In this document: piece after piece, positions 10,278 through 55,206 of the stretch
Position numbering within the stretch: the stretch's first letter is position 1
Layout: each line of letters begins with the position of its first letter
NCBI GenBank assembly: GCA_030539295.1
Contig: JAUNSJ010000001.1
Location: 1 to 64,000 of the forward strand
Reading direction: 5' to 3'
Length of the DNA: 64,000 nucleotides
From: Planctomycetia bacterium
GTDB taxonomy: Bacteria; Planctomycetota; Planctomycetia; Pirellulales; Thermoguttaceae
Notes under the pieces: model-generated
Seen by the model: the letters and a program-made list of their open reading frames with translations, nothing else
What the model was told of the DNA's origin: nothing
Databases searched by the model: none
Position numbers and translations under genes: made by a program

Positions 10278-10292
10278 AGAGAAGGAAGTATC

Positions 10293-10895: not shown

Positions 10896-11087
10896 ACACA
10901 AAGGGCAGACAACCGTTCAAAACTCCAGATTCATATTGGAATAAAGCGAAAGAGATGGGACTAGAGCGATCATGGAAGAATACCTTTGCTCTTTTAAGTT
11001 TAATAAAGAGACAAGCAAGTGCCTGGTGACCAACGTGGTCAAACAATCGAATTCTTCCACTTAATTTATGAGTATTAGGACAGAAAT

Positions 11088-28815: not shown

Positions 28816-29970
28816 TTATTCAAGGGGAGGCGCCATGAAATGGAACAGGTCAATCGGCCAACCGGAGAACCCTTCGAAACCTTCCGGTATGGTCTGCTTG
28901 TACTGAAGGTAAACTTTATTGTGACCTTTCAGTTCGTATTGTATGGGAACATCGGCCTCTTCACTAAAGACTTTACACCCCATAAGCGAGCAATCTTCGA
29001 ATGCAACTTTGTATTTTTCGCCGCCGTTGGCACTGCGGATAATCCCGGTACAGGGAGTGCCGCCCGGCTGTGAAAAATTATTAACGATGAGTCGGCAATT
29101 TTTCAGACTGACGTAGGTACATGCGGGGTACGCATCGCAGTTGTTTTCAATGGCATTATCGGGCGAAACGAGAGTGCAATCTTCGAGATAGAAATCGGGG
29201 TATTCCGGCAGGGTTGAATTGAAAGCGCGCAGGAAGGCGGCGCCGGCATCGCCCCAGGTATCGAGAGACGCGGCCCAAGTGCGACGAAAGACCGTAGGTT
29301 CGTCCGGTCTGGCGTGCGGATTCGCCGGATCGTCGGCAGCAAAAGCCACGCCTATACCAAAGGCGCGTCCGATACTAATGCAATCTTCCACGACGACCGT
29401 AAAGGGACCTGTATCGTCCAGACAGTCCCAGAAGAGGCCGGCGTCGCTTCCTGTCACATAGAGTCGTCGCACAATCCAACGATCCCACCCCAAACTGGAG
29501 AAGGTTTCGTCGGTGTGCGAGGTCGTCCACCCCTGCGTATAGGCACGAATGGAACTGTACCAGTCGTAAGACTGATATCCCTTTTCCGGGTCGCTTGAGT
29601 CAAGAACGACCCATCCCACGGCACCGGAGCCGTACTTACCATCGAAGTCACCAACCAGTTCATTATAAGCGTCTTTGGCTCCTTTGTGACTGGGGTACAA
29701 ATTTGCTTCCATATAGGTATCCGGTCGAACAACAATGCGGTATCCACCTTTATCGTCAGGAATGGACAGCAGCGCTTTCTGGACAGACTTATAGGCCGTC
29801 TGCCAGCTCTTACCATCGGAATCGTCGCCCAATTTCGATACGTAAATATTGACTTTTGCCTCGTCGGCACCCATATGCTCGTTCGGGGCAAAAGACTCTT
29901 CGGCAAACGTTGTAAGAGTCGCACTCACGAACAGAGCCAGCGTCGCTAAAAGCAACCATCGTAACTTCAT
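28816..29970 (-). CDS. Secreted right-handed parallel beta-helix (pectin-lyase-fold, DUF1565-like) protein.
   Basis: Signal peptide MKLRWLLLATLALFVSATLTTFA. N-terminal IYVSKLGDDSDGKSWQTAYKSVQKALLSIPDDKGGYRIVVRPDTY matches the 'YVSP.GSD.NDGS...P..TIQ.A.....GDTI.L..GTY' entry motif of beta-helix proteins. Confidence 0.55.
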   Translation of the reverse strand: MKLRWLLLATLALFVSATLTTFAEESFAPNEHMGADEAKVNIYVSKLGDDSDGKSWQTAYKSVQKALLSIPDDKGGYRIVVRPDTYMEANLYPSHKGAKDAYNELVGDFDGKYGSGAVGWVVLDSSDPEKGYQSYDWYSSIRAYTQGWTTSHTDETFSSLGWDRWIVRRLYVTGSDAGLFWDCLDDTGPFTVVVEDCISIGRAFGIGVAFAADDPANPHARPDEPTVFRRTWAASLDTWGDAGAAFLRAFNSTLPEYPDFYLEDCTLVSPDNAIENNCDAYPACTYVSLKNCRLIVNNFSQPGGTPCTGIIRSANGGEKYKVAFEDCSLMGCKVFSEEADVPIQYELKGHNKVYLQYKQTIPEGFEGFSGWPIDLFHFMAPPLE

Positions 29971-36803: not shown

Positions 36804-37257
36804 GTCTTGTTTTTCGTCTTTAAGTGCTTGTTATACATTAGGATACATTGACTTTTGAGAGACGACAGATAGGTCAGGGAATCATCTGTCGGCATCGTGC
36901 CGGTTCGGTTTTGGTCCCGGAGCTGCGGTGTTCTTGCGGAGGAGTCGTGGAGTCCGCATAAAGGTACGGGTGCCGAAAAAACGCGGAAAAAACAATAGAA
37001 TATCGAAAATTTTTTGAATTACAGGGAATAAAGAACTTGACATAGAAACACGCGGCAAGTATAATGGAGATGTCAAGGTGGGGACCAGCATTGACAGCGT
37101 AATATGCCAGGAACAGATCGGACGGGGGAATTGTTTCCGAATGCTCAGAGTCCTGATACTCTACTGTCATATTTATTGGAATTCCACTTTCTGCTGTCAA
37201 TCACAGGAATATTAAGATCGCTACACGGAGCTGGATCGGGTTCCGTGCCATTGGGTC

Positions 37258-38268
37258 ATGTTAACGTGTAACGACACGTTAAGAAACAGCATTAAGGAGC
37301 GTATGATGGACGAGTCGCGAGACAAAAAAGTAACACCAGAAGACGGTGGCAACACGAACGAGAGCACGAATGACGCCTCGAATGAGACCAATTCGGGAGA
37401 GCACAGCCGAGGATCCAATGGGACCGTCTACGAGAACCTGGAAAGCAGCGGAATGAATAAGAACCACGCGGAATTTCCGATTGTTGGTATTGGGGCGTCG
37501 GCTGGTGGTCTGGAAGCATTGCAGGAATTTTTCGACAATATGATCTCGGACCCGGGCGCGGCCTTTGTGGTCATCCAGCACCTGTCTCCTGACTACAAGA
37601 GTTTTATGGGTGAGTTACTGGGCCGCCATACGACGATTCCCATTCACGTGGTCACAGACAAGATGAAGATTGAGGTCAACCACATCTATCTGATTCCTCC
37701 TAAAATGAATATGACCATTCGCGGCGGCGTACTTTACTTGAAAGAGATCATCGGTCGCAGTCTTAACCTGCCCATTGATATTTTCTTCCGTTCGCTGGCG
37801 GAGGACCAGCAGAGTAACGCGGTCGGTATTATTCTTTCCGGAACGGGTTCGGACGGAACTCTTGGTATCCGCGCGATTAAGGAGTTTGGCGGCGTAACCA
37901 TGGTGCAGGATGACCAGTCGGCGAAGTTCGATGGCATGCCACGCAGTTCCATCTCGACCGGCATGGTCGACCTGATCCTGTCGCCCGACGATCTGGCTAA
38001 AGAGCTGGCCAATTACATTAAGCACCCGATTATTAACCACACCAGCCCGGTGGAAGACCAGTTATTGCAGAACCAAAGCCTGTACAACAAGGTCATTGCG
38101 ATTCTGCACGAGGCCAAAAATGTCGACTTTTCGACCTATAAGCAGAATACCATCGTGCGGCGTTTGGAGAAACGAATTTCGATCAACCGGTTCGTCAAGG
38201 TAATCGATTACGTTTCCTACCTGGCCGCCACGCCAAAGGAAATTATGCCCTGTTTAACGACCTGTTGA
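37258..38268 (+). CDS. CheB-type methylesterase domain: the N-terminal part of a CheB-CheR fusion that is interrupted by a frameshift.
   Basis: CheB_methylest motifs (VGIGASAGGLEALQEFF, AFVVIQHLSPDY, HIYLIPP). Ends ...[20 protein letters not shown], exactly where the CheR_N consensus (..[16 protein letters not shown]) continues in another frame. Confidence 0.75.
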   Translation: MLTCNDTLRNSIKERMMDESRDKKVTPEDGGNTNESTNDASNETNSGEHSRGSNGTVYENLESSGMNKNHAEFPIVGIGASAGGLEALQEFFDNMISDPGAAFVVIQHLSPDYKSFMGELLGRHTTIPIHVVTDKMKIEVNHIYLIPPKMNMTIRGGVLYLKEIIGRSLNLPIDIFFRSLAEDQQSNAVGIILSGTGSDGTLGIRAIKEFGGVTMVQDDQSAKFDGMPRSSISTGMVDLILSPDDLAKELANYIKHPIINHTSPVEDQLLQNQSLYNKVIAILHEAKNVDFSTYKQNTIVRRLEKRISINRFVKVIDYVSYLAATPKEIMPCLTTC

Positions 38269-39971
38269 TTGGCGTTACGCGGTTCTTTCGAGACGAGAAA
38301 GTTTTCGAGGTTTTAGCCGATTCCATACTCCCGGCCATCTTTGAGAAGCATACGGACAAGAGCGAGATTCGCGTCTGGGTCCCCGGCTGTTCCACCGGAG
38401 AAGAGGCGTACACCATCGCCATGCTGATTAAAGACTATATGCTTCGCAATAATATACTGAATGATGTAAAAATCTTTGCGACGGATATTGACGAAGATTC
38501 CTTGAGTTATGCGAGTTCCGGATTCTATCCGAGCAATATTTCGGCCGACGTCCCCCAAAAATACCTGGTCAAATATTTTGTGCGACACGATAATGGTTAC
38601 CAGATAAACGACAACATACGTCGCATGATTATTTTTGCGCGGCACAATGTCATCGACGAGCCGCCGTTCTCGAAGCTGGACATGGTCTCGTGCCGCAACC
38701 TCCTGATTTACATCGACTTGGAAACCCAGTTACAGATTCTCTCGACGTTCCATGTCTGCCTGAAGCCGGACGGTATTTTGTTCCTCGGCTCCAGCGAATC
38801 TCTCGGCAAACTGGCCGACGGATTTGATATTCTCGACAGTAAGGCAAAGATATTCAAGAAGAGGAATCGGTTCAAACCGGAGTTTTATCCCTCTTCCTCA
38901 ATCAGTGTCCCGCTGCATCGGAACAGGACGGACCTGTCACTTCAGAACGCGGGCAAGCTCATGAAGCAGGGGAGTCGTCACTTGAGCTATGTGTTCGAGG
39001 ATATTGTGAACTCGTTTCTGCCACCGTCGGTGATTATTGATTCGAATTACAATCTTTTATACTTTATTCGTAACGCCGGTGATTTCCTCCAAATACCGCA
39101 AGGGGAAATGACCATCAATCTGCTCCGCATGCTGCCGAAAGAAATAGGGGTAGCCGTTTCCAGCGTTATACGCAGGGCAGAAAAGAAGAATGGTGAAATT
39201 ATTTCGATGGAAATCGTCACCATGAAGCAGCAGATTAACATAACGTGCAAACGAATTGTAACCGTGGACGATGATTTCCCCTGTTACTACATTAGTTTTG
39301 CCGAAGTTCATGTTTCCGACGCGGTTAAGATTGACGAAAAGACGTTACCGCTGGACATAAGCAATCAGTATCAGGAACGCATTGAGGAACTGGAACGCGA
39401 GATTCAGCATAAGAACGAGAGTCTTCAGGCAACGGTTGAGGAGCTGGAAACCAGTAACGAAGAGTTGCAGTCGAGCAATGAGGAATTGATCGCCAGTAAC
39501 GAAGAGTTGCAAAGTACGAACGAAGAATTGCAGTCGGTCAATGAGGAACTGTACACGGTCAACGCGGAGCACTTGCGCAAAATCGAGGAAATGACCGAGC
39601 TGAATGCCGACTATGACAACCTCCTGAACAATACGCAAATCGGGACGCTCTTCCTTGACAAGGACCTGGTCATCCGTAAGGTAAGCTCCGTTGCCAGCAA
39701 CATAACCAACATTATCCAAAACGATATTGGTCGTCCGCTACACCACCTGGCACTAAGCACGCTGTACCCTGATTTCATCAAAGACGTGGACCATGTCAAC
39801 GAAACGTTGCAAAGTATAGAGCGTGAGTTACCCTATCGGAATAAGGTTTACTTTATGCGGATCGTGCCCTATCGTACGAAGGAGAAGGCAGTAAAAGGAA
39901 TCATAATCACTTTTATTGAATTCACCGCGTTAAAGGAAGCCGTGAATGCGGCCAGTTCGGAAACGCCCTGA
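38265..39971 (+). CDS. CheR-type SAM methyltransferase, NEEL-heptad coiled coil and C-terminal PAS domain: the C-terminal part of the CheB-CheR fusion.
   Basis: [17 protein letters not shown]...[21 protein letters not shown] (CheR). [37 protein letters not shown] repeats. PAS-like C-terminus. The frame is open upstream to about 38150 and reads ...[13 protein letters not shown]. Confidence 0.8.
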
Positions 39972-40344
39972 TTCGAGGAAACGCCCTGCCTGAAGAATGG
40001 GGAGCAGGCGACTGCCCGACACGGAAACGTGCTCCCCTTTTACCGAATGGCGAGCCGGCAAAGCGACTGTTTGCGTGTACCTCAATTCGTGGTGTACTCG
40101 AGCTGTGTTCGGCGGAAAACGGCTCCGAGGCCTGTGTTCTTCCTTGCCGGTCCCCCTGTCGCAAGAAGAAAAAACGACTATACTATAATTGTTACGTATT
40201 GTGTCAGGAAGGTCGTTCGGAACTGCCATTTACGTGGTTGTATCCGAGCGTCCTGTAGCGACCTGACCAAGGACATGTTTTTCCCGGCGGTCCTGCCCGA
40301 TTACCCTGTAATCCGACCAGCCAGAGGCCCGCAACGGGAAACAA

Positions 40345-42450
40345 TTGAAGAGAGGCGGCAAACCGAGTCGAGTCATGAGTCCATTAATGAAAATTATGAA
40401 GCTCATTGGCCATGAGAATTTATGGCTGGCGGGGAAACTATTGAAAACGCGAAACAAAATTCCACAAATCTTTTCGTTCCGTTCGACCACGAGCAGCACG
40501 AACGGAATCTGCGGACCAGTGTGTCTGTTCACTATGGCTTTCTCCCTCTGCTTTGTGCCAAACCTTTATGCGTCCGGGGGAAGTTTTGTCGGAGTATCAT
40601 CTGTGGCAAACGTGGTTCTTGGTTTGGCCGTACTCTATCTTGCGTTTCTTGGCATCAAGCAGAGACTGAAAATCAAATCCCTTTTGAGGGTTAAGAAGGT
40701 CATTGAGTCTATTCCGTTGCAGTGTGGAGTCTGTGACGCCACTGGGAATCTCTATTTCTACAAGGATATCGGCGAAACGGAAACCGACCACAATCCCCGA
40801 ACCATCAAAGACCTGTACATTGAGCTGTACCAGGAGTTGGATTCGGTCTTACCCTCCGTGTTCGAATCCCAAAGTCCGAAATCGCTTGAGTTTGATTCCT
40901 TCTCCAAGCGATATAAAATCAACATAAGTCTTTTACCAGATGGCAGTTATGGAGTGCCGACAGCGTTATGGACGGTGCACGATATCAGTGACTTGGCCAA
41001 CGCGTATGCCGAGCGGCTGAAGATATTCAATCTGTTATTGAGTACACTCGGCTCCATTGGTGACGCGGTTATATCGACCAATTGCGATGGTGAAATTTCC
41101 CTGATCAATCCCTCGGCCTTACACATGGTCGGCTTGTCAGAATCGGAAATTCTGGGTAAATCGTTCAACGATTACTTCCAGATCGCTGGAGAAGAAGGCG
41201 AGTCGCTCATAGCGCAAGTCGTGCGAACGCGGAGAAGTTACCCGTTACACACCTCGGTAAAAATTCGGAATCGTGACACACTTTTCATTGATGGTTTGAT
41301 AACTCCGATTTTTACGGACAATCTCATAACCGGGGTGGTTCTTTATTTTCACGACACAACAGACTTGGTGCAGCAGGGTCAGAAGTTGCAACTGGCGTTG
41401 AACTTTGCGCAAATTTCGGATCGGGCTAAGAGTGATTTCCTGGCAACGGTCAGCCACGAATTCCGAAGTTCTGTCAATATAATTATGGGCTACTGCGACC
41501 TGATCGCGATCGGCGGACAAAGCGACCAGCGAACCTGTTTTGAGAGTATACGACGGGAAGCGGAAAAACTCTTGCTCATGTTCAACGATATTTTGGACGT
41601 CTCGAAAGACGACGAGAGCACGGAACTTAAGCCTGTCCCGGTAAACTTTAAAGAGTTCACCCGGGAAATTCAGAGAATCTTCAGTAAGACATCAAAGAGT
41701 AAAAAAATTTCTCTCGCTGTACAGCAGGAGACGTCTGTGCCTGTGATTCTCTCGGATTATAAGGCATTGCGGCAAATCATTATGCAGCTGCTGACCCAGG
41801 CCTATTCTCTGGCCATTGGCGATTCCATTCTGCTGACCATAAAATGGGTACAAAGAAATCTTGTCATGGAGATTATTGTGGATACGCGCAATGTGCGAAT
41901 CAAGCAGGACAAGAATCTTTCGATTTTCAAGCGTCTCTGCGAACGACTTAACGGGACACTGAATTTGAGTCAAACGCCGAACCATCTGTCCTTTGAGATC
42001 GTTTTAAACAAGCCGGAAATCGTCCACGACACGAAGACGTCGCTTCTGCCGGTACTTGCCATGCAAAAAGACAAGCCGAAAAAAGACGTTATTCTGCTCG
42101 TCGACGACATAGCCATTAACTTAAAGGTGCTTGCCTCGCTGCTGAAGAAGTACAATATAGAGAGTGTCCCGTGTACGACGGCGCACGCGGCCATGGAGGA
42201 GATCAACAAGTACACGCCCAAGGCCATCTTTATGGACTTGTGGATGCCCGACATTAGCGGCGACGAACTGGCGAACGTTCTGCAGAGCAATCCGGAGACG
42301 GCGTGCATACCGCGAATCCTCATAACAGCGGACACACAACTGGATAAAAGGTTTGAGGATCTTTTTATGTACATTATGTACAAACCACTGAATCCGAAGG
42401 AACTGCAAAAGGCGTTAACGCTCATGGAAGAAACGGGAACAAGAGAATAA
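40345..42450 (+). CDS. Hybrid sensor histidine kinase / response regulator (TM + PAS + HisKA + HATPase + REC).
   Basis: TM segments near the N-terminus. H-box ATVSHEFRSSVNIIMGYCDLI. C-terminal receiver VILLVDDIAINLKVL...FMDLWMPDISGDELA. Confidence 0.85.
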   Translation: MKRGGKPSRVMSPLMKIMKLIGHENLWLAGKLLKTRNKIPQIFSFRSTTSSTNGICGPVCLFTMAFSLCFVPNLYASGGSFVGVSSVANVVLGLAVLYLAFLGIKQRLKIKSLLRVKKVIESIPLQCGVCDATGNLYFYKDIGETETDHNPRTIKDLYIELYQELDSVLPSVFESQSPKSLEFDSFSKRYKINISLLPDGSYGVPTALWTVHDISDLANAYAERLKIFNLLLSTLGSIGDAVISTNCDGEISLINPSALHMVGLSESEILGKSFNDYFQIAGEEGESLIAQVVRTRRSYPLHTSVKIRNRDTLFIDGLITPIFTDNLITGVVLYFHDTTDLVQQGQKLQLALNFAQISDRAKSDFLATVSHEFRSSVNIIMGYCDLIAIGGQSDQRTCFESIRREAEKLLLMFNDILDVSKDDESTELKPVPVNFKEFTREIQRIFSKTSKSKKISLAVQQETSVPVILSDYKALRQIIMQLLTQAYSLAIGDSILLTIKWVQRNLVMEIIVDTRNVRIKQDKNLSIFKRLCERLNGTLNLSQTPNHLSFEIVLNKPEIVHDTKTSLLPVLAMQKDKPKKDVILLVDDIAINLKVLASLLKKYNIESVPCTTAHAAMEEINKYTPKAIFMDLWMPDISGDELANVLQSNPETACIPRILITADTQLDKRFEDLFMYIMYKPLNPKELQKALTLMEETGTRE

Positions 42451-42462
42451 AGCGACGTTGAA

Positions 42463-43677
42463 ATGAGTGCTGCACAAGAGGATCATTCGAAAGACAACAA
42501 TGCGATAACGCTCGAAACCGGCAACACGATGTCGTGGGTGCGAGAGAAGAATTTCTTTCCGCTCATGTCGCAATGTGAGTTTCCGATAATGGCCAGTATG
42601 GCCGAGACGGTCGAGGTCGGTGTGGAACCGGGCGCGGCGTCGCAGACTATTTCTGGTGCCGCAAGTTCCTTTCTTGAGCGGAGTTCCTACTCACTCATGA
42701 GTTACGATACGGAATTGCCAAAGATAGGCGGTCTTTATCAGTTCCGAGAGAGCGTGGGAACCGGCGGATTCAGTTGTATATACAAGGCCTATGACGTCGT
42801 TTTGCAGCGCGACGTGGCGATAAAAACCTTGAGTGAGGAATATTGCTCAAAGTATGTCAGTCGGAACGCGTTCATTGCGGAAGCCAACGTGACCGCTTCT
42901 CTTGACCACCCGAATATCATTCCGATTCATGGTTTGTATACGGATGAGAATAACCAGCTTCATTTGGTCATGAAGTTGATTGAAGGGAAGAATCTTCGCG
43001 AAATCCTGACACAGAAGATTAAGGACTATGAGAGCAAGTCGCGCCGGGAAATTGTGCGAGAGGAACGTGCCAATCTTATTAACCGTCTGGAAATCTTTTT
43101 GAAAATTTGCGACGCGGTTGCCTATGCGCATAACAAGAAGATTCTTCACCGGGATATTAAGCCGGAAAACATTATGGTCAGTAGCTATAACGAGGTGTAC
43201 GTTATGGACTGGGGCATCTCCGAAGCGAGAGAAGTCAGATCGCAGCAGAAGAAAAAGACTGTTTTGGGTACGCTGCAGTATTTAGCGCCGGAGATTATCG
43301 CGAACGCGCCCTACGACAGTCGTTCCGACATCTACTCTCTCGGCGTCCTGCTCTTCTATCTGGTTTATCTCTATCGCCCCTTTCCGGAACAGTGCAGCTC
43401 GAAAGAAATTTGCAAAGTAAAGAACAGTCTCAAACCGCTCATCACAACGCATACTTTTGGCGTTAATGTTCCGCATGAACTGGGCAACATCGTGCGTAAG
43501 GCTATGGCTCTTTCGCCCAAAGACCGCTATCAGACGGTGCAGGCCCTGGCCGATGACGTCCATCGTGTCCTTCGGGGCGATTCCCTCTACGGCTCCATGT
43601 TCGGACGGGTCCTGAAATTCTTTGGTGTTCCGGTTTCGCCTGACTTGGCCGGTCACGCATCCCCGGGGCAACAGTAG
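42463..43677 (+). CDS. Hanks-type serine/threonine protein kinase.
   Basis: ATP-binding region (FRESVGTGGFSCIYKAYD...VAIK). Catalytic loop HRDIKPENIMV, DWGIS. Activation segment GTLQYLAPE. Confidence 0.85.
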   Translation: MSAAQEDHSKDNNAITLETGNTMSWVREKNFFPLMSQCEFPIMASMAETVEVGVEPGAASQTISGAASSFLERSSYSLMSYDTELPKIGGLYQFRESVGTGGFSCIYKAYDVVLQRDVAIKTLSEEYCSKYVSRNAFIAEANVTASLDHPNIIPIHGLYTDENNQLHLVMKLIEGKNLREILTQKIKDYESKSRREIVREERANLINRLEIFLKICDAVAYAHNKKILHRDIKPENIMVSSYNEVYVMDWGISEAREVRSQQKKKTVLGTLQYLAPEIIANAPYDSRSDIYSLGVLLFYLVYLYRPFPEQCSSKEICKVKNSLKPLITTHTFGVNVPHELGNIVRKAMALSPKDRYQTVQALADDVHRVLRGDSLYGSMFGRVLKFFGVPVSPDLAGHASPGQQ

Positions 43678-43732
43678 AGCAACTGGCAACCGGCAAGCCG
43701 GCCATGCAAAACGGTTTAAACCGAAAAGCGAA

Positions 43733-44050
43733 TCAGTTATTCAGGTGCGCGCTTAATTTTTCCAGCTCGGCAACGCAAAGGGCACACGGCTCCTCGTCAC
43801 AGGCTTCCGCCGCATCCTGTAGTTGTAAGGACACCATTCGAACGGGTTCTGCACCAATATTGCTCGAACTTCCTTTAAGCGTGTGAGCAAGAATCCGCAA
43901 GGCAAAAAAATCTCTTTTTTCAAAGGCCTTTTGCATATTTGCAAGCGACTGTGTAAACAGCAAGACATAATCACGCACAAGCTCGTCGATGAGTTCCTGC
44001 TCGTCGATTTCGAGTGAGTTGCGGATATATTCTTCAATAATCTTTTTCAT
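43733..44050 (-). CDS. Hpt (histidine phosphotransfer) domain protein.
   Basis: RILAHTLKGSSSNIGA carries the conserved H..KGS phospho-accepting motif. 105 aa. Confidence 0.8.
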   Translation of the reverse strand: MKKIIEEYIRNSLEIDEQELIDELVRDYVLLFTQSLANMQKAFEKRDFFALRILAHTLKGSSSNIGAEPVRMVSLQLQDAAEACDEEPCALCVAELEKLSAHLNN

Positions 44051-44109
44051 AATGAATCAATTCCCCCCGATACCATAGGATAAAAGTAACCATAAAGATT
44101 CTTTTGCAA

Positions 44110-45780
44110 TCACATGGATTCGAATAATTTTCTGATTTTTTTAATGTTAATGGGTTTGATTATGGTTCCAGCGAAGTAACTCATATCGAAGTTATTCTCC
44201 CGTTCCACATCGGCGGTAACGGCATAGATTGGAATATCGTTGTAGTCGGAATTCTGTCGGATGGTGCGGGCAAGCTCCTCGCCACTCATTTCGGGCATCC
44301 ACAAGTCCGTCATAATGAAGTCGTAACGATTTTTTTTGAGGAGTTCAAGAGCTTCCTTGGCGGAAGAGGCGAGTGTAGAAGAACAATTCATAAGCTTGTT
44401 AATGGAATCCAGGACCTTCAGGTTCATTACAACATCGTCGACCAAAAGACAGGTTCGCTGCGGAATGGATTTTGGGGCCGGGGCATGTTCGTCGGGCGGG
44501 TCCAGCCGGACGAGTATGTGAGAAATATCCAGAGGGATTTGAACCCGCATTGAGTCCAGCGGATGAAGCCAGGAGATCTCGCCGTTAACGAGTTTGATAA
44601 TCTGTCGCGCGAGAAAGAGTCCCAAGCCTTCGCAGTTTCTCATTGCAGACTGATTCCGGAACGGCATGTTCAAGCTGCTTTCGCCGGAAAAGATATCCTT
44701 TCCAGTGAACTCCAGAACGAGGAACCCGCTACTGGCTTCATTTTCGACATAGCGCCCGGTTATAACGACCGTGCCACGGGTCGCGTTCCCCGCCGCATAA
44801 CTCAGTATGGAATAGATGATTTGGCGTAATCGCAACTGATCGGTCCATAAAATGGGTATTTTTTCAACTTCGTTTCGAATCAGAATGTTTTTGTCTTTAT
44901 TGGCCCCCTGTACGAGCAAGACGACCTCGTCGCAAATTTTGCAAACATCGACGTTTTCGTTTCGCAACGGTATGGTCCCGGTTTCCAAAGAGGAAAGGTC
45001 GAGCACTTCTTCAACGAGCGTATGAAGCATCTTCCCTGACAATTTTATGGTATCGATATAGTCCTCCATGACGTTTCGGCTTATACCATCTTTATAGTCG
45101 ATAAGGTCAATAAATCCGAGGATTGTGGTCAGAGGTGTGCAAATCTCGTGACTCACCGTGGTCAGGAACAAGGACTTCTGACGGTCATTTTTTTCAGCGT
45201 TTTCTTTAGCGAGCACGAGCTGCGATTCCAGCCGCTTTTGCATGGAAATATCGCTTATTGCCAGACGAAACTGTCGCAGCCCGGCTTTACAGGCCCCTGC
45301 CGTTATCATGACGTACTGTGGAGCCCCGAAACGATTATAGAGTTTTATTTCCAGGGGGACCGGCACTCCGGTTTTCGCCAACATTCTGCAAAAGAGATAG
45401 AACGAGTTTTGAAATTCAGGGCAGACGAATTCGTCGAAACAGTGCCCTTTATACTGCATGTCCTGCAGGTGCGAGGGAACGTATTTGTCAATAAAAGTCC
45501 GATTCAGCCTTTCGATGGTCCCTTTCTCGTCGATGATCACATAGCCAACCGGAGCATTCTCGAACAATTCGATAAATTCCTCACGCGATTCCGAAAGTTC
45601 CTTTTCAGAACGTTCCAGCTCCCTGTTCTGATGCTCCAGCTCAATGTGATAAATACTCAGCTCTTGTATAAGATCACGGACATTATTCCCCTGTTCATTA
45701 ATGGCAACGCTGTTATCCACGGAGTCCAGGAGTCGAACAGCCATTTCCCGAAGTTTTTCTATAGGATTATTTTCGCTCAT
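44110..45780 (-). CDS. Hybrid sensor histidine kinase / response regulator with an N-terminal PAS domain.
   Basis: H-box FLTTVSHEICTPLTTILGFIDLI. HATPase (LGLFLARQIIKLVNGEI). C-terminal REC (CLLVDDVVMNLKVL...MTDLWMPEMSGEELA). Start overlaps the upstream gene (ATGA at 45777-45780). Confidence 0.85.
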   Translation of the reverse strand: MSENNPIEKLREMAVRLLDSVDNSVAINEQGNNVRDLIQELSIYHIELEHQNRELERSEKELSESREEFIELFENAPVGYVIIDEKGTIERLNRTFIDKYVPSHLQDMQYKGHCFDEFVCPEFQNSFYLFCRMLAKTGVPVPLEIKLYNRFGAPQYVMITAGACKAGLRQFRLAISDISMQKRLESQLVLAKENAEKNDRQKSLFLTTVSHEICTPLTTILGFIDLIDYKDGISRNVMEDYIDTIKLSGKMLHTLVEEVLDLSSLETGTIPLRNENVDVCKICDEVVLLVQGANKDKNILIRNEVEKIPILWTDQLRLRQIIYSILSYAAGNATRGTVVITGRYVENEASSGFLVLEFTGKDIFSGESSLNMPFRNQSAMRNCEGLGLFLARQIIKLVNGEISWLHPLDSMRVQIPLDISHILVRLDPPDEHAPAPKSIPQRTCLLVDDVVMNLKVLDSINKLMNCSSTLASSAKEALELLKKNRYDFIMTDLWMPEMSGEELARTIRQNSDYNDIPIYAVTADVERENNFDMSYFAGTIIKPINIKKIRKLFESM

Positions 45781-48605
45781 GATACTTTTCCAAAAATGCT
45801 ATTGTATAGTAGTTCGCGTGAAATCGGTTTTTCCATAATCCGGTCGAACAGTGAGGCGTCATAGGCAGTCCGATCGTGCTCGGCCGTAACAACGGCAATG
45901 CGTACGGAAGCAAATTGCGGGTTCGCACGAATGGCTCTGGCCACCTCTTCTCCGTTCATGTCAGGCATAACGAGGTCAGTCAGGACGATATTGAAATTGC
46001 CGTTTATCAACATGTCAAGGGCCATTTTTCCGGAAGTCGCTGTATCGTGGCTGATCTGCATATTTTTAAGCATATTAGACAGGATTTTCAGACTTAAAGG
46101 CACATCGTCGACCACGAGCACCCGAGGCACATCATTAGGCGGGCAGAGACCTTTCGCGCCGAGACCGGCATGTTCGGAATCGTCGGTAACGCTCTGCGAC
46201 TGCATCTTGATTTTTGGTATTGTCAAGAGGAACGTAGAGCCTGTGCCGAGCGTACTGTTAAGTGAAATTGAGCCGCCCATTTGTGTTAACATCTTCTTGA
46301 CAATAGGCAGACCGAGTCCGGTTCCATTGTTCGTGGAATTGGTACCGCGCATTCGGGTTAACTGGACAAAGGGTTCAAAGAGTCGTTCGCAGTCTTTCGG
46401 GTCGACGCCTATACCGGTATCAGCGACGGTGACGGTTAAGGTCCCTTCGTCATCTCCGGTTTTTTGAAAGTCCATAACAACGGAAATACCGCCTACGTTG
46501 GTGAACTTAATGGCATTACCGACCAAATTAAAGAGGATCTGTCGCATTCGCTGCTGGTCGATAAAGAGATCGGGCACATCTTCTGCGTCGAACGAGAGTC
46601 TTAAATTCTTCTGCCGGGCATTGTGACTGAAGATCGAGCCGATTTCCTGACAAAACTCGGTCATATTCGTAATTTCCGGAACGAAGACGGCCTGTCCTGC
46701 TTCCAGTTTGGACAGGTCAAGAATATCGTTAATGAGAATGAGTAGCGAGTTCCCGGCGAAGGAGATATTCGAGAGATAATCATGTTGAGTCACCGGATCC
46801 AGCTTCGTATTACTCAGCAGGTCGGCAAACCCGATAACGGCGTTCAGAGGCGTTCTGATTTCATGACTCATTGAGGCCAGAAAGAAACTTTTGGCCAAAT
46901 TCGCCGACTGCGCTTCATTTAAAGCAACTTCAAGTTTCTGAACGATTTGCCTGTTCGATATTGCCAGTTCTATTATATGGCTGATCATTTCCAGGAGTCG
47001 CATTTCGTTATCGGAAAGTTGTTTTTGCTCGCGATACTGTGTAATAAAACCGACACTACCCCACGGTTTTCCGTTGACGAGAATATAATTGACGTGGACC
47101 CAGCGCACGTCGAATTCCTTGTATTTTTGCAAGAGGCCGGGGACATACGTTTCGGCTTGGAGACGCTGTTCTTCCTGGCTGAAATCGCATTCGAACACCT
47201 CTCCGCGTTTGGCGTTTATCAAGGCTTTGTACCAAGCCTTATCCTGGGACTCCTCCTGTAAGAACCGGATTCCTTCAAAGATGGATTCCTCATTTTCCGG
47301 AAGGTAGGTTGCGAAGAGTCGAACGGATTGTGTCTGTTCGTCGATGCCGGAGACATAAGCGCGGGTAAAGCCGAGATAGTCACAAATAATTTTCAGGACA
47401 TTATTAATGCCCACTTCCAAATTATCGTTCATATAGAGAATTTCGAAAGCGGAGGAAATAATTTTGCGTATTTCAGAAAGAATGAAGAGCTCGGACGCCT
47501 CGTAGGTCATGCCGATTAAAACCGAGTGTCCGTTCTCGTTTTTCGCGGGAACTTTGATGGATTCCAAACGGCGTAAGGCACCCGAGTTATCCTGTATGAT
47601 TTCAGAGAATTTTAATGCGGTGCCGATTGCCATAACCTGGGAATCGTGCTCCCAGGCCGTCTTTATATCGACGTCGCGAAAAAAGATATCCCGATCCGTC
47701 TTGCCAATAATACGATCTTTATCGCAAAGAAAAAAATCGGCCAGACGCTGATTGCATTGCAGGTATCGAAAGCCATCGTCGGCATCTTTTACGTAAAATA
47801 TCGCCGGAATCACATTGACAACCTTATCCCACATTTCCTGAATGGCTTCTTTTTGTGAGACGACGTTATAAAAGGAAGTGACGTCCTGAATCAGTCCAAT
47901 AATGACGTCAGAGGCGTCGCTTTTCTTCTGAAAAAAACTGCGATGGTAGCAGGTCACACCGTCCTTGACAACCCGGTAGACAATAACAGCCCGTTTGAGC
48001 CGCCCGGATATGACATCCCGGTAGCTTTGCTCGACCAGGGAGACATCTTCCGGGAGAACCCAGTTTTCTGACGGGACTACCTTACCGTTGCAAGTGGGCC
48101 AAAATTGGGGAAGACGGGTTGAACCTGTTAAATCGCCGGTTGTGTAATTGATCTGAAAGAAGACAACTTTCGCAATCTCCGCGGCAAAGTCTGAATAATC
48201 AACTGCGTCCAGCTTGCTATTGCCAAGGGAGCAATCGTCGCCCAGGTCGTGAATGACCAGAACGGCACCGGTGGTTTGGCCGCTCGAATTGAGCATGGGT
48301 GAGACGTTGAGATGGACAGGCTGGCGTGATGGCCCGCGTGGCGTGACCAATTCGGTTGCCGCTTGAACGGAGGCTCCTGTTGCCAGTGCGTGGAGGAGAG
48401 GGGATTCCCGCGTCTGGTCCTCTTGCGGGCTGCTAAAATTAAAGACTTGACTGTACAGCTGTCCCAAAGCCACTTGCGACTCGACCTTAAGCATTCTTTC
48501 GGCCGCCGGATTCAGCATGGTAATTCGACCATCTTTATCCACGCTGACCACGCCGTCGCACATGGCATCCAGCGTTAGGCGAAAGAGCGATTCGTTCTTC
48601 GTCAT
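45777..48605 (-). CDS. Large hybrid sensor histidine kinase / response regulator with multiple PAS/GAF-like sensor domains (942 aa).
   Basis: H-box FFLASMSHEIRTPLNAVIGFADLL. HATPase G-boxes (GTGLGLPIV). C-terminal REC VLVVDDVPLSLKIL...LTDLVMPDMNGEEVA. Confidence 0.85.
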   Translation of the reverse strand: MTKNESLFRLTLDAMCDGVVSVDKDGRITMLNPAAERMLKVESQVALGQLYSQVFNFSSPQEDQTRESPLLHALATGASVQAATELVTPRGPSRQPVHLNVSPMLNSSGQTTGAVLVIHDLGDDCSLGNSKLDAVDYSDFAAEIAKVVFFQINYTTGDLTGSTRLPQFWPTCNGKVVPSENWVLPEDVSLVEQSYRDVISGRLKRAVIVYRVVKDGVTCYHRSFFQKKSDASDVIIGLIQDVTSFYNVVSQKEAIQEMWDKVVNVIPAIFYVKDADDGFRYLQCNQRLADFFLCDKDRIIGKTDRDIFFRDVDIKTAWEHDSQVMAIGTALKFSEIIQDNSGALRRLESIKVPAKNENGHSVLIGMTYEASELFILSEIRKIISSAFEILYMNDNLEVGINNVLKIICDYLGFTRAYVSGIDEQTQSVRLFATYLPENEESIFEGIRFLQEESQDKAWYKALINAKRGEVFECDFSQEEQRLQAETYVPGLLQKYKEFDVRWVHVNYILVNGKPWGSVGFITQYREQKQLSDNEMRLLEMISHIIELAISNRQIVQKLEVALNEAQSANLAKSFFLASMSHEIRTPLNAVIGFADLLSNTKLDPVTQHDYLSNISFAGNSLLILINDILDLSKLEAGQAVFVPEITNMTEFCQEIGSIFSHNARQKNLRLSFDAEDVPDLFIDQQRMRQILFNLVGNAIKFTNVGGISVVMDFQKTGDDEGTLTVTVADTGIGVDPKDCERLFEPFVQLTRMRGTNSTNNGTGLGLPIVKKMLTQMGGSISLNSTLGTGSTFLLTIPKIKMQSQSVTDDSEHAGLGAKGLCPPNDVPRVLVVDDVPLSLKILSNMLKNMQISHDTATSGKMALDMLINGNFNIVLTDLVMPDMNGEEVARAIRANPQFASVRIAVVTAEHDRTAYDASLFDRIMEKPISRELLYNSIFGKVS

Positions 48606-50260: not shown

Positions 50261-50514
50261 TACAAACCTATCTATTTTATCTATTATTCCCATTTTTTAT
50301 TTCTCGCATAAAAATTATCCCTTTTTTGCGAGGTACTGCGATTAAAATTCCCCTAAAATGTCTCAAAACAGCAGAAGTCCTCTAAACGCTACTGCCGATA
50401 TATTCGATAAGAATGCCCGTTAGATTAGAACCGCTTGGTCGAACCAGACGTGCAGGTTCCCGTATGCCTGTTTGGCCATGGATTTTTATCGCACTTTCCC
50501 ATGAAAGAGCCACT

Positions 50515-53500
50515 ATGAAAAAATCGACAATAGAAAAAGCGTCCAAAGTTCGTCGCAAGGGTACGCCAATTGGGCAACGTGGCAAGATGGCTATTACAAT
50601 GGCGTTGGCTGCGGTACTATTCGGAGCGGGCAATGCCTGGGCCGAGGATGGTTATCTTATCAAAAACGATGATGAGACCACGCATTATGCCTCGCTTTTC
50701 GAGGCCAATCCGAGCGACGGCGACTTAGTCATCGTCGCTGGCGGTAATGTGGAAGGCGGGGGCGCGATAGAATACACCTCCAGTACCTCCCCGGCCAGCA
50801 ACATAACCCTTCGATCGGACGACGATAACGTGGTTCGGAAAATCGACGCGGGCGGTACCGCACGGCTATTCTATTCCGATGTATCAGAATTTGCCCTGAC
50901 GCTCAACATTGCCAACCTGGAATTCACCAACGGGAACGGCACTTCCGGCGGATTGATTTACACACCAAGCTCCGGTGCGGTTACCATCAACGGCAGTAAT
51001 GCGTTTTTCACGAACAGCCATGCTTACGGCGGGGGAGTCCTATCCGCTGGTGTGGTCAATATTAGCGGTTCTAATACGTTTACCAATAACGTGGCAGAGC
51101 ATTCTATCGGTGTGCAGGGCGGCGCGATTTACGCCAGCAGTAATATTGTGCTTGAAGGAAAGCAATCCACGGCGATCTTCTCCGGAAATACTGTTACTGT
51201 AGGTTCAACCACTCATAGAAACGATATTTACGCGGAAAATAACATTACCATAAAGGACGGCGGACGATACAGCTTCGACGGTGGAATCACCACGGGGAAA
51301 GATTTTGACACCTTCACGATCCAGGACGGTTCCAACGTTATCTTTGGCACAAACAGTATTACGACTATTCAGGGAAAGACGCTTCTGGACAACGCCCATC
51401 TCACGATTCAAGGTTCCGATAGCACCACGTTTGACGTCGGCAGGCTGGAAATTGGGAAAGACAGCCAGAACTCCATCGTGTTTGAAAGCACGTATTCCAA
51501 CGAGGGGAGGACCGTCATGGAAGGCGAGAACCTTGTCTCCGCTCTGACCCAGGGCAACATGCAAATGTTCGTAAAAACCACTAAAGGCGACTTCGCGTAT
51601 ATTCGCGAAATTAGCGGCACGCAAGTCATCGTCAACGCCGTGGAAGAAGGAACGAGCACGTTCAATCTCGTGCGGGGCAAGGGTTTGGTCGAGGATTCTC
51701 AAATATACTATTTCGTTGGCTGGTCCAAAACCTTTGGCGGTCACTACTATAGTGCAACCCCGTCAGGAACGAAAACGATTCTGCCCGGCGATCGGATTGT
51801 TGTAACCGCAGACGGATACATGGGAACCTCCGAATTACCGAAATTCGGAGAAGACTTCGCCCTGTCGATTCAATCCAATACGAACGAAGTACGTACGATT
51901 ACCGCGGAGACCAAAACAGTCACGAAGGGTTACGGAAAAATCCTGACCGGTTACGGAAAAATCACGTTGAACCTTAGCCAGATTAAATTCGACAACGACG
52001 ATGTATCGAATACGGGTGCGTTTATCGTTTCAAATAGCGTCGTGGTGAACGGTTCGGGCGAGTTTGCCAATAATGATTCAAGCGGAGATAGCGGCGGCGC
52101 GATTACAGCAGACGATGCCGTTGAGCTGAACGGAACGATTCAATTTATGGGCGAAAAGGCGCAGACCGGACTGGCGTTCACAAATAACCGAGCAACCAGC
52201 GGCGGGGCAATTTCCGGCAATAGCGTAACGATTTCAGGTTCCAATCTTTATGTGTACGACGGAAAGAAAACGTATGCCAACACGTTCACGGGCAACGAGA
52301 TTAGCGGCGGCAGCGGCGGGGCCGTTTATGCCAGTGCCAGCGTAAGTCTTTCCGGCTCCAACCTGTTTGATAAAAACGTCTCAGAGAGCGATGGCGGCGC
52401 GATTTATTCCGGAGGAACCGTCTCGGTCTCCGGCGAAAACAAGTTCACCGATAATAAAGCGAGTACCGGGCAAGGCGGCGCGATTTGGGCTGCGAGCAAT
52501 GTGACTTTTTCCGACACGGACTCCACAACAACCTTCGCTGGAAACACAGCCAACGGCGTTAAAAACGACGTGTTCTCCCAGAACGGCAATATTACCTTTA
52601 GCGGCGGTACGTACATTCTCGGCGGCGGTTTGGTCGCGGACGGTAACCCTGACGACAAGAACAGTGGTATTATAAATGTCACCGGAGGAGCCTACGTTAA
52701 TCTTGAGGATGGAACCATATCCTCCGCCAGGAATTTGGTGATTGATAATAACGCGACGCTGGACATTGACCTGAACGCGAACAACAAGGTATCGGCACTC
52801 AACGCGGTGGACGTTGCCGACGGCGCGACCGAATTGTTCTTATCCGGAACCGGCTCGATAAACGAAGGCAATATGGATGTGTACCTTGAAAAAACCGACG
52901 GCATGACCAACGGTTACTACCTCGTCGCAGCCGGCAATTTTTCCGGGAACGATACCAGCAACGTGACACACAATAGCTGGGATTTCGCCGCAAGCCGCAT
53001 TTCCGCAACGGATACGGGACTCTATCTGGGCGTTCTGCTCAATGGGGGCGCTGTCCTGCGCAGCGACGCCAGCGGAACACTGAACGCGGCCGATACATTT
53101 GACGCCGTGTTCGAAGACGGCTTGGGCGCAGTGGCTACTGGCAATGTGATTACGATTAGCAATGACGTTCATGCGGAAAACGCCATTAATCTGAACGCAG
53201 ATGTCAATGAACTGACGATTCAGTCCGATGATTCGGCACAACGGCGAACCATTACGGCCACAGGCATTACCGGTCACCGATTCTTAAACTTTGAAGGGGA
53301 CTGCACGGTCAATACGACGAATATCATATTCGAGAACAGTGGAACTGATCTCGTCCAAGGCGGCGCGATTTTCTCGAACGGTAACCTGACGATCAATGGA
53401 ACTACGGAATTTAAGAATAACCAGGCTGAACTCGGCGGCGCGATTTACGCCGTAGGAAATGTCACGTTTGCCGAAGGATCCCATATAGATTTCAGCGGCA

Positions 53501-55206
53501 ATACAATGGGAAGCGGCGAGAACGAGACTCCGAACGACTTGTACGTTGCGCCCACACTCGGTGGTTCCAGCGTTATTACCATCGAAAAAGATGCGATCGT
53601 CAACTTCCACGGTGGTATCGATTGCGGAGCTGTTGGAAATACGTCGCTTGTCATTGACCAAGGTGCTCATGTTACGTTCAGCGACGACGCGACTGTCAAT
53701 ATCAGCGGCGAAATGCATATCAACTCGTCCGATGTGACCTTCGGTGACGACGTCGTGATGGATTTCCAAAACGGGGTCATCGCTGGCGTGAACGTTTCGC
53801 AGTCGTTGAGTGGGAATGTTTCGATTGCCAAAGAGCTGGGCGCGACGTTTGACCTTGAGAATAACAGTAACAGTTCTATTGACCTGCGAGACGCGAGTAA
53901 CGTAACGATCTCGGAGGATGTGGCCGTGAAAATCTACGATGACAACGGTAACGTGCTGTCCGCCAAAGATTTCAAGGGAAAACTTCCCGCCTCGGGCAAT
54001 ACGTGGACGCTGATTTACGGGAAAAACGACGCCCTGGCAAACGTGGGCGGCGAGGATGTCTACGAATCGCTCCTGTACAAAGTCCAACTTGGGCTGGACG
54101 GTCAGAACTTCGTGATAAAATCCGAAAAGAAAGATCTGCAACCCAGCGCGATAGAGCGCAACGCGGAAGCCGCGAGACAATTGTTCGGTGACGAGATTTT
54201 CGATGTTAAAACAGAAGACGAAGCAAGACTGGTCGTCAGCGGAGCCACCGGAGAAATCTATGCCTCGACGGCCAACGCTCAAGTTCAGCGACTGAATTAT
54301 CTCAATACGATGCTCGTAAACCGGCTCCTTGGCCATGAGGATTCGCAAGCGCGGGTCGAGTCAACGGTTCGAGGTCAGTGTGCCGAGCATTGCCCGGCTG
54401 CAAATCTCTGGGCCAGTGGTTACGGAATCGGTGGCTTTACGGACATGGACGGTTCTTACGTTGCCGGCTACGACTACAAAGCAGGCGGCATGCTCGCCGG
54501 GGCCGATTGGCAAGGAGCCAACGCGCAATGGGGACTCTTTTGTGGATATGGGCAGACCGGTATCGACGCGGCCAATGCCGATGTCCATTCGAAAGATACC
54601 ACGCTCGGTGGCTACCTCCTCTGGGACAGTCGGCTCGGAGGTGGGTATACGACTCTCCTTGGCAACGTTTCCTTGAGCGATGTCTCCGGAACCCGAACGA
54701 TTTCCGCCGACTCGTACGCGAACAAGTTCGATGCCCGACAGTCGTCCTGCTATCTGGAAAAGGGTTGGAAGTACGAGAATAACCTTGGAGTCATGGTTAA
54801 TCCTTATGGCGTTTTGCAATATATAGGCTACAACGCAGACGCTACGGGCGATGATGTCCTTGCCATCGACGAAGTCAACTACGATTCCTTGCGTACGAAA
54901 GCCGGAGTGCGTTTGGACCGGAATTTCTGCCGCAACGGGAATCTGTGGACGCTTTCCTCCGGGTTCGCCTGGAATCATGAACTGCTTGACACGAGTGCCA
55001 ATTTCATTGCCACAACCAACTTCGGAGGACAGCCAGTGGCGGCAACAATCTTCGGAAACGAGGCCGGCCGCGACTGGTTCGAATACACCGCGGGCGCGAA
55101 AGTGGCTTTGACAGAAAACGTCACGCTCTCCGGCGATTATTTCCTCTTCGTCAATAAGCGATCGACCCTCAATGCCGGTATGGGCACGCTAACCTGGCGT
55201 TACTAA
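50515..55206 (+). CDS. Giant autotransporter adhesin with Chlamydia-Pmp-type passenger repeats (GGAI / FxxN) and a C-terminal autotransporter beta-barrel.
   Basis: Signal region MKKSTIEK...MAITMALAAVLFGAGNAWA. At least 8 GGAI(Y/W/F/S) repeats with FTNN/FTDN/FKNN/FDKN motifs. C-terminal beta-barrel (LWASGYGIGGF...GMGTLTWRY, terminal aromatic). The 50413 start is probably upstream of the real one. Confidence 0.85.
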   Translation: MKKSTIEKASKVRRKGTPIGQRGKMAITMALAAVLFGAGNAWAEDGYLIKNDDETTHYASLFEANPSDGDLVIVAGGNVEGGGAIEYTSSTSPASNITLRSDDDNVVRKIDAGGTARLFYSDVSEFALTLNIANLEFTNGNGTSGGLIYTPSSGAVTINGSNAFFTNSHAYGGGVLSAGVVNISGSNTFTNNVAEHSIGVQGGAIYASSNIVLEGKQSTAIFSGNTVTVGSTTHRNDIYAENNITIKDGGRYSFDGGITTGKDFDTFTIQDGSNVIFGTNSITTIQGKTLLDNAHLTIQGSDSTTFDVGRLEIGKDSQNSIVFESTYSNEGRTVMEGENLVSALTQGNMQMFVKTTKGDFAYIREISGTQVIVNAVEEGTSTFNLVRGKGLVEDSQIYYFVGWSKTFGGHYYSATPSGTKTILPGDRIVVTADGYMGTSELPKFGEDFALSIQSNTNEVRTITAETKTVTKGYGKILTGYGKITLNLSQIKFDNDDVSNTGAFIVSNSVVVNGSGEFANNDSSGDSGGAITADDAVELNGTIQFMGEKAQTGLAFTNNRATSGGAISGNSVTISGSNLYVYDGKKTYANTFTGNEISGGSGGAVYASASVSLSGSNLFDKNVSESDGGAIYSGGTVSVSGENKFTDNKASTGQGGAIWAASNVTFSDTDSTTTFAGNTANGVKNDVFSQNGNITFSGGTYILGGGLVADGNPDDKNSGIINVTGGAYVNLEDGTISSARNLVIDNNATLDIDLNANNKVSALNAVDVADGATELFLSGTGSINEGNMDVYLEKTDGMTNGYYLVAAGNFSGNDTSNVTHNSWDFAASRISATDTGLYLGVLLNGGAVLRSDASGTLNAADTFDAVFEDGLGAVATGNVITISNDVHAENAINLNADVNELTIQSDDSAQRRTITATGITGHRFLNFEGDCTVNTTNIIFENSGTDLVQGGAIFSNGNLTINGTTEFKNNQAELGGAIYAVGNVTFAEGSHIDFSGNTMGSGENETPNDLYVAPTLGGSSVITIEKDAIVNFHGGIDCGAVGNTSLVIDQGAHVTFSDDATVNISGEMHINSSDVTFGDDVVMDFQNGVIAGVNVSQSLSGNVSIAKELGATFDLENNSNSSIDLRDASNVTISEDVAVKIYDDNGNVLSAKDFKGKLPASGNTWTLIYGKNDALANVGGEDVYESLLYKVQLGLDGQNFVIKSEKKDLQPSAIERNAEAARQLFGDEIFDVKTEDEARLVVSGATGEIYASTANAQVQRLNYLNTMLVNRLLGHEDSQARVESTVRGQCAEHCPAANLWASGYGIGGFTDMDGSYVAGYDYKAGGMLAGADWQGANAQWGLFCGYGQTGIDAANADVHSKDTTLGGYLLWDSRLGGGYTTLLGNVSLSDVSGTRTISADSYANKFDARQSSCYLEKGWKYENNLGVMVNPYGVLQYIGYNADATGDDVLAIDEVNYDSLRTKAGVRLDRNFCRNGNLWTLSSGFAWNHELLDTSANFIATTNFGGQPVAATIFGNEAGRDWFEYTAGAKVALTENVTLSGDYFLFVNKRSTLNAGMGTLTWRY

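Follow-up and report, generated by a model that had tools for sequence, protein, structure and literature searches.

The stretch of Planctomycetia DNA analysed here (the window: 64,000 nucleotides, proteins MDO5552134-148, part of a 358-kb contig) carries a signalling island at 37258-48605. It encodes a CheB/CheR fusion with PAS domains (CheBR), three histidine kinase (HK)-like proteins with receiver (REC) domains (HK3, HK6 and HK7), a single-domain histidine phosphotransfer protein (Hpt) and a Hanks-type Ser/Thr kinase (STK). On balance, we slightly favour the view that the island is a lineage-specific Planctomycetia signalling neighbourhood made of three sub-modules, in which HK7 is the sole ATP-competent kinase and HK3 and HK6 are receiver-controlled. 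The stable sub-modules are HK7 followed by HK6 (and at some loci by CheBR), HK3 followed by STK, and Hpt. Although frequently found together, they also occur apart. The island is a recurring neighbourhood of them, with a different gene arrangement in relatives that share 49-64% protein identity. The clustering of the same gene set in other genomes argues that the island is more than chance.

Domains were called with Pfam on the island proteins and on the other large open reading frames (ORFs) of the window. All of the domains named in the original prediction for this DNA, which had been made from the sequence alone, were found within the island, including those of the Hpt protein and the Ser/Thr kinase (Table 1). 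No NCBIfam model scored above its cut-off for any of the seven island proteins, and Rfam gave no match in the window. The genes form two convergent groups, with Hpt as the last gene of the minus-strand unit facing STK. Part of the proposed operon structure is borne out by an ATGA overlap between the HK7 stop and the HK6 start and by a gap of 12 nt between HK3 and STK. However, ~415 nt separate cheBR from the probable HK3 start (40387), so that the plus-strand operon probably consists of two separate transcription units, cheBR and HK3-STK. A terminator scan performed no better on the window than on shuffled sequences, and no clear terminator was found between the convergent STK and Hpt genes.

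Table 1. Coordinates of the island genes and associated features in the window.
Feature	Position	Strand	Evidence
cheBR 5′ part	37258..38268	+	Pfam CheB_methylest 9e-56, CheR_N 3.5e-8; gene caller's start 37306 (Logan gene call)
cheBR frameshift site	38238..38268	+	Sequence; comparison with L002 and L004; same in Logan contig L001
cheBR 3′ part	38265..39971	+	Pfam CheR 3.7e-57, PAS_10 3.1e-21; residue mapping; AF2 of P0001
Six-heptad helix, candidate methyl-accepting segment	39438..39563	+	Sequence pattern and AF2 of P0001
HK3 (PAS+HisKA+REC)	40387..42450 (mechanical ORF start 40345)	+	Pfam, motif inspection
STK, Hanks-type Ser/Thr kinase	42463..43677	+	Pfam Pkinase 5.4e-50
Hpt, single-domain protein	43733..44050	-	Pfam Hpt 5.7e-11; orthologues in L002, L176 and L179
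HK6 (HisKA+REC in Pfam)	44110..45780	-	Pfam, motif inspection
HK7 (PASx2+HisKA+HATPase_c+REC)	45777..48605	-	Pfam, motif inspection
Candidate promoter-like site before cheBR, TTGACA-17-TATAAT, 12/12 matches	37037..37065	+	Consensus scan only

The kinase-like proteins, Hpt and STK

The original prediction counted three hybrid histidine kinases. HisKA and REC domains were indeed identified in all three proteins, but canonical ATP-binding boxes (N, G1, F and G2) are present only in HK7. This protein is a cytoplasmic multi-PAS hybrid histidine kinase of 942 amino acids, with His581, an N box at residue 697, a G1 box (DTGIG) at 729, an F box, a G2 box (GTGLGL) and a REC domain with Asp877. Its best NCBIfam similarities, all sub-threshold, are to TorS, BarA and ArcB. 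HK7-type orthologues at four related loci (L171, L174, L176 and L177) are 1600-2080 amino acids long and begin with a periplasmic SBP_bac_3 domain. The window protein starts directly with PAS and contains no hydrophobic segment, which suggests that the extracytoplasmic sensor has been lost.

HK6 is composed of an N-terminal coil, PAS, HisKA (His211), a divergent catalytic and ATP-binding (CA) region and REC (Asp492). Its match to Pfam HATPase_c scored 17.5 bits, short of the 26.4-bit cut-off, and it lacks the G1 Asp (FTGKD). These features extend to its family, which comprises ~20 orthologues with 40-66% identity from Planctomycetia/Thermoguttaceae, none of which matches HATPase_c; beyond the family, scores drop sharply to ordinary hybrid kinases. 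In the family alignment the G1 Asp is absent from all 18 sequences and the H-box His is replaced by Gln in 4 of the 18, while the DD and D residues of REC are invariant. The family profile nonetheless matches the dimerization and histidine phosphotransfer (DHp) and CA regions of solved kinases, including RetS (~1e-27) and DivL (2e-18).

HK3 carries two N-terminal hydrophobic segments, the only probably membrane-spanning segments among the island proteins, followed by a conserved cytoplasmic region, PAS, HisKA (His357), a CA-like region and REC (Asp617). The CA-like region has no N, G1 or G2 box and no Pfam HATPase_c match. HATPase_c is likewise absent from the HK3 family of 11 members; the His is Tyr in two of the 11, as in DivL, and all 10 members whose sequence extends over the receiver keep the REC motifs. 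The orthologues of HK3 and HK6 at locus L002 show the same box losses, and the NCBI Prokaryotic Genome Annotation Pipeline names both families 'response regulator'.

Judged by these motifs, HK3 and HK6 look like REC-bearing pseudo-kinases that have probably lost ATP binding. Two points weigh against this assignment. First, HK6 keeps the invariant Asn (GNAT), and a G2-like GLGL is found in its close relatives, such that residual nucleotide binding is possible. Second, both window proteins keep the H-box His, and they could therefore still be phosphotransferases or phosphatases instead of scaffolds; ChpT and Spo0B are histidine kinase-like phosphotransferases with which HK3 and HK6 may be likened.

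Hpt has His56 within AHTLKG (HxxKG), kept in three orthologues. STK is a soluble protein with no domain besides Pkinase; the catalytic Lys (Lys121, VAIK), the HRD Asp (Asp231) and the DFG-type Asp (D249, in DWG) are all present and are kept in the orthologues of L002 and L005. A scan of contigs with STK as the query returned mostly generic kinases at 33-40% identity, with L005 as the only true relative (60%). The proposed linkage between HK3 and STK was upheld, as their adjacency is kept in four genomes.

The original prediction further held that the terminal response regulator of the phosphorelay is not encoded here. REC domains in the window were detected by Pfam only in HK3, HK6 and HK7, and no classical response regulator with an output domain was found in the 64 kb. 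With HK3 and HK6 as REC-bearing pseudo-kinases, however, the conclusion that a regulator is missing no longer follows, for these two proteins may themselves be the terminal acceptors. We infer a relay in which HK7 would sense cytoplasmic signals through its PAS domains, autophosphorylate at His581 and pass the phosphoryl group to Asp877 and then to His56 of Hpt, from which it would reach the receivers of HK6 (Asp492) and/or HK3 (Asp617). HK6 and HK3 would then act as response regulators with a pseudo-kinase scaffold as their 'output', in the manner of DivL and RetS. HK6 may couple the relay to the CheBR methylation module, or the reverse, while HK3, membrane-anchored and translationally linked to STK, may couple it to Ser/Thr phosphorylation. 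CheBR would work with PAS-kinase partners and not with chemoreceptors.

CheBR: partners, heptad helix and reading frame

In the window the CheBR domains are distributed over two ORFs. ORF1 encodes a low-complexity N terminus, a CheB methylesterase domain and the all-alpha CheR_N domain, and ORF2 encodes the S-adenosylmethionine (SAM)-dependent methyltransferase CheR, a PAS-like domain, a long helix and PAS_10. Alignment equates S81/H108/D199 with the catalytic triad of Escherichia coli CheB (S164/H190/D286), and mapping to E. coli CheR shows that the SAM-binding and catalytic residues are kept (R9/E47/D74/R144). Both parts match solved CheR and CheB structures strongly, and no receiver domain was detected in the CheB part by Pfam. 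The protein belongs to a very large annotated family: hundreds of database proteins, many of them from Bacteroidales/Bacteroidetes, share 54-87% identity with it and are named by the Joint Genome Institute 'two-component system, chemotaxis family, CheB/CheR fusion protein'; this fusion with PAS_10 is presumably KEGG K13924. In the searchable literature we found gene lists only and no functional study of the family, nor any match to the heptad peptide or the partner-motif peptide described below.

Relatives were collected in several ways. A metagenome scan with a single protein (P0001) gave no matches, and a rerun with an alignment (A1) was successful. However, A1 picked loci through the heptad motif described below, which makes motif conservation among those loci circular; a motif-free query, consisting of the CheB and CheR_N part, was therefore run against 1.84 billion cluster representatives. 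This search returned 7309 matches at E<=1e-30, and the best 150 were mostly multidomain proteins of 800-1800 amino acids. Tandem CheBR paralogues, ~64-80% identical to the window protein, were observed at L004 (9632-15315) and L177 (11473-16795); at L004 the pair is preceded by a stand-alone receiver with 64% identity to that of HK6.

The neighbours of CheBR are consistent with its proposed independence from methyl-accepting chemotaxis proteins (MCPs). An MCP or CheW was found near CheBR in only 1 of 80 metagenomic loci. By comparison, among the 57 loci with at least 1.5 kb of downstream sequence, a histidine kinase was fused to CheBR in 5, directly downstream in 19, directly upstream in 1 and within 8 kb in 6; L085, L086 and L088 are examples with a PAS-HK directly downstream. 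Pfam matches among the 60 immediate downstream ORFs were dominated by PAS (29), HATPase_c (26), HisKA/HisKA_3 (25) and REC (13), followed by GGDEF (3), EAL (2) and HD-GYP (2). Moreover, 33 of these 60 ORFs contain an N-terminal [IVL]EL[EQ]xQNxEL motif, which falls within residues 42-129 (within 42-68 in 28 cases) and precedes a PAS domain, a motif present in only 54 of the 8563 ORFs of all fetched loci, which served as the background set. CheBR is thus linked to PAS-kinase partners and not to MCPs. HK6 carries the motif at residue 46 (IELEHQNREL), whereas HK3 and HK7 do not. By this motif HK6 is assigned to the CheBR-partner class as its local member, in keeping with its place in the operons of relatives.

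Six consecutive EE-x-x-[AST][AST]-N heptads lie in CheBR between the PAS-like domain and PAS_10. An AlphaFold2 (AF2) model of P0001, which is 87% identical, places them in a single 92-residue helix, with a predicted local distance difference test (pLDDT) of ~80-88 over the segment; the overall predicted template modelling score (pTM) was only 0.37, and the inter-domain geometry was accordingly not used. No solved structure among the structure profile matches covers this part of the protein. The heptads form the most conserved 35 residues of CheBR, above the catalytic motifs, and its longest invariant run, unchanged among 22 homologues with 52-83% identity. Of the 132 proteins of 800 amino acids or more that the motif-free query retrieved, 129 contain at least three heptads, usually six.

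The pattern resembles that of chemoreceptor methylation sites. In E. coli Tar, [EQ][EQ]xx[ASTG][ASTG] matches only the four known methylation sites (295, 302, 309 and 491), of which those in methylation helix 1 are likewise seven residues apart, and the same expression matches four consecutive CheBR heptads. Runs of at least three heptad-spaced matches were confined to CheBR proteins (76) among the 8563 ORFs; in the one MCP among them the run is two long. Each of the twelve EE positions is Glu in 93-100% of sequences, and Gln makes up roughly half of the few substitutions. Because the heptads match the Tar methylation sites in both pattern and spacing, these data support, without proving, a candidate role of the helix as an intrinsic methyl-acceptor.

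Whether the helix is instead purely structural, a coiled coil or signalling helix that links two PAS domains and has no part as a methylation substrate, stands in our judgement at an even balance. Such a role would account for the one continuous helix predicted by AF2 from the PAS-like domain to PAS_10 and for the Asn at position a and the Leu at position d of every heptad, which fit an in-register parallel dimer, and the related QNEEL-containing N-terminal helix of the partners might simply pair with it. It does not by itself explain why this stretch is more conserved than the catalytic motifs, why it recurs in nearly all full-length proteins retrieved by a query from which it was left out, why Tar-like runs occur in no other ORF of the background set, or why replacements of Glu are rare and often Gln. 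Tentatively, and with rather less than an even chance, we suggest that CheBR-PAS is a self-contained methyl-accepting module. Its own CheR and CheB would act on the heptads, within one protein or across a dimer, and the methylation state, read through PAS, would tune a partner with an IELExQNxEL-PAS N terminus, usually a histidine kinase and here the pseudo-kinase/receiver HK6. The N-terminal helix of the partner was also considered as the methylation target and was rejected, since the two adjacent small residues of the consensus are missing from its EELRRx unit.

Although the original prediction named a CheB/CheR-PAS fusion, the window copy is split into two frames. Relatives read ATTAAC where the window reads ATTAT, a 1-nt deletion at ~38244-38246 that separates CheR_N from the CheR catalytic domain and creates the TGA at which ORF1 ends; this stop overlaps the first TTG of ORF2 (TTGA, 38265-38268). 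The sequence is identical in the Logan assembly of SRR24915786, whose independent contig (L001) is 100% identical to the window from position 32580 onward. A homopolymer sequencing error is an unlikely cause, as the change is AA to A with an adjacent substitution and is the same in both assemblies. The window cheBR is therefore a family member by descent, not an intact fusion. Since the CheB triad and the CheR residues are intact, the lesion may be recent, may be tolerated through reinitiation, or may be an error common to the two assemblies. Among the compared loci, the window is the only case in which cheBR does not lie directly downstream of HK6 and also the only one with a frameshifted copy. 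Moved from the HK7-HK6 pair and frameshifted, cheBR would be either inactive here or expressed as two polypeptides.

These observations also bear on the island as a whole, in that cheBR may be a decaying remnant, a pseudogene that lost its function after separation from the HK7-HK6 operon, leaving at most a His-Asp/Ser-Thr network. We regard this as a serious possibility, though one falling somewhat short of even. It is favoured by the deletion itself, present in an independent assembly, by the intact state of close relatives (867-886 amino acids, including P0001 and the 81%-identical P0005), by the unique position of the gene and by the lack of an obvious Shine-Dalgarno sequence before ORF2. 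Conversely, neither half contains any other stop, and every catalytic residue checked is kept, which speaks for a recent or tolerated lesion; the TTGA overlap would allow termination-reinitiation, a promoter-like consensus site precedes the gene, and a consensus error shared by the assemblies may account for the frameshift. A second promoter-like site, with 11 of 12 matches and an extended -10 TG, was noted at 36760-36732 on the minus strand, such that the two form a divergent pair between the GH2 gene and cheBR.

Conservation and surroundings of the island

All six genes were found together at L002 and L003, from two European Nucleotide Archive metagenomes, in the order Hpt> <STK <HK3 HK7> HK6> CheBR> (arrowheads give the direction of transcription). 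Identity to the window proteins is 87% for CheBR but no higher than 49-60% for the others. L179, on another contig from one of these two samples, reads <HK6 <HK7 HK3> STK> <Hpt and ends with its contig at the HK6 stop. L176, from GCA_964652875, contains <Hpt HK7> HK6> CheBR>. The proposal that the genes form one unit thus holds insofar as the neighbourhood recurs at L002/L003, L179 and L176; it fails insofar as the sub-modules also occur separately.

Several of these arrangements weigh against a single functional unit. In GCA_964652875, HK3-STK is encoded on another contig (L005), apart from L176. Gene order varies between genomes, and consequently the patterns of co-transcription are not conserved. 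Pairs of an HK7-type and an HK6-type gene stand alone at L171, L173 and L174, and L177/L178 read HK7> HK6> CheBR> CheBR> without Hpt, HK3 or STK. Additionally, the frameshift means that the methylation arm may be dead in this genome.

The same arrangements (the isolated pairs, the reduced L177, the split in GCA_964652875 and the differences in order and strand between the window and L002) would be expected if independent two-component and kinase genes had come together here by chance, in a genome rich in signalling genes, without being functionally linked. We consider this unlikely. HK7, HK6, HK3, STK and Hpt lie within ~11-12 kb in three genomes (the window, L002/L003 and L179) despite 49-64% identity, rearrangement and different flanks, and every REC domain of the 64-kb window falls inside the 11-kb island.

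Further observations concern related loci. At L171 (GCA_030539035.1, JAUNSU010000031, given as the metagenome-assembled genome of the window), positions 2650-13437 encode a paralogous SBP_bac_3-multi-PAS hybrid kinase followed by a protein with 41% identity to HK6. This module lacks CheBR and is followed by an RVT_1 reverse-transcriptase gene; the large kinase was called as two ORFs (2084 and 367 amino acids) and may be frameshifted. The HK6 orthologue of L176 (9765-11503) was similarly called as ORFs of 82 and 500 amino acids, suggesting another frameshifted signalling gene in the clade. L079 (2984-17160), from a metagenome-assembled genome of Vicinamibacterales, encodes a distant CheBR (36-45%) and then an HK-REC partner. 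This pair adjoins an unrelated Ser/Thr kinase of 788 amino acids and another hybrid kinase, an independent case of CheBR-HK beside a Ser/Thr kinase.

The island is flanked by unrelated genes for a GH2 glycosidase and a CNNM protein, and the flanks also encode DUF1559/N_methyl proteins, consistent with the Planctomycetia label of this metagenome-assembled genome, as is a PMP-type autotransporter. The latter (50413-55206, plus strand, 1597 amino acids) lies just past the CNNM gene and has faint Chlam_PMP repeats. Elsewhere in the window, positions 8001-14000 have a GC content of 0.39-0.42, compared with ~0.50 in the remainder, and may have been acquired horizontally; the ORFs at 8417-11822 gave no Pfam match, and 12289-13770 encodes a leucine-rich repeat protein. 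Three large minus-strand ORFs matched no Pfam family at E<=1e-5: 23747-26272, 26634-28715 and 28816-29970 (841, 693 and 384 amino acids, respectively).

Comparison with known systems

Few 'chemotaxis' genes are annotated as widely as CheB/CheR fusions where an organism or locus has no chemoreceptors, and we found no experimental account of the substrate of these fusions. The built-in methylation-type helix of CheBR may explain how they function without chemoreceptors. If this is true, methylation-based adaptation would extend from chemotaxis to general two-component signalling, and chemoreceptor-style adaptation or memory independent of MCP, CheA and CheW would exist in thousands of bacterial lineages. 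The importance of this particular window is smaller, because the combination is lineage-restricted and its cheBR copy is broken.

The architecture CheB_methylest-CheR_N-CheR-PAS_10 is that of the CheB/CheR fusions with PAS_10, from which the window copy differs in being split by a frameshift. With the Che pathway (MCP-CheW-CheA with CheR and CheB) the island shares homologous methyltransferase and methylesterase domains with their catalytic residues, and the heptad-spaced EE-xx-[AST][AST] units of CheBR resemble the methylation helix of Tar. Nevertheless, the island does not qualify as a Che pathway: searches for MCP, CheA and CheW found none in the 64 kb, as had been predicted, either by Pfam on the large ORFs or by six-frame phmmer over the full window with the E. 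coli proteins Tar, CheW and CheA as queries. The CheB part also has no receiver, and CheBR partners are PAS-HKs or GGDEF, EAL and HD-GYP proteins. That CheBR is a classical adaptation enzyme acting on ordinary MCPs encoded elsewhere, with the island beside a stray chemotaxis gene, is highly improbable: it would fit the conserved catalytic residues and the strong matches to solved CheR and CheB structures, but a PAS-kinase or PAS-output partner is fused or adjacent in about half of the CheBR loci against the single locus with MCP or CheW, the receiver through which CheA controls canonical CheB is lacking, the NCBIfam CheB and CheR models all score far below cut-off, and many close homologues are labelled Bacteroidales or Bacteroidetes, lineages that to our knowledge are generally without flagellar chemotaxis systems.

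Judged by its domains, the island is in kind a hybrid-kinase/Hpt phosphorelay. It resembles the ArcB/BarA/TorS/RcsC type in combining a complete hybrid kinase, HK7, with a free Hpt nearby, and differs from it in that no DNA-binding or classical output regulator is present, the candidate acceptors being REC domains fused to pseudo-kinase modules. Like the pseudo-kinases DivL (His to Tyr) and RetS, HK3 and HK6 keep a DHp/CA-like fold without ATP-binding residues, and the H-box His is replaced in some family members. This likeness is at the level of the general histidine kinase fold only, and the proteins are not orthologues: HK3 and HK6 have a receiver at the C terminus and are members of small families specific to Planctomycetia. 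STK, with a complete kinase domain and a conserved pairing with HK3, recalls Hanks-type kinases coupled to two-component proteins, although its motif is DWG and not DFG, and it lacks any sensor, PASTA or transmembrane domain. The original prediction that this is not a described system is true of the exact combination, which is undescribed and restricted to a Planctomycetia clade. Its core joins CheBR-PAS to a PAS-kinase partner, a pairing that is very common among annotated genes, and it is this pair that the island elaborates.

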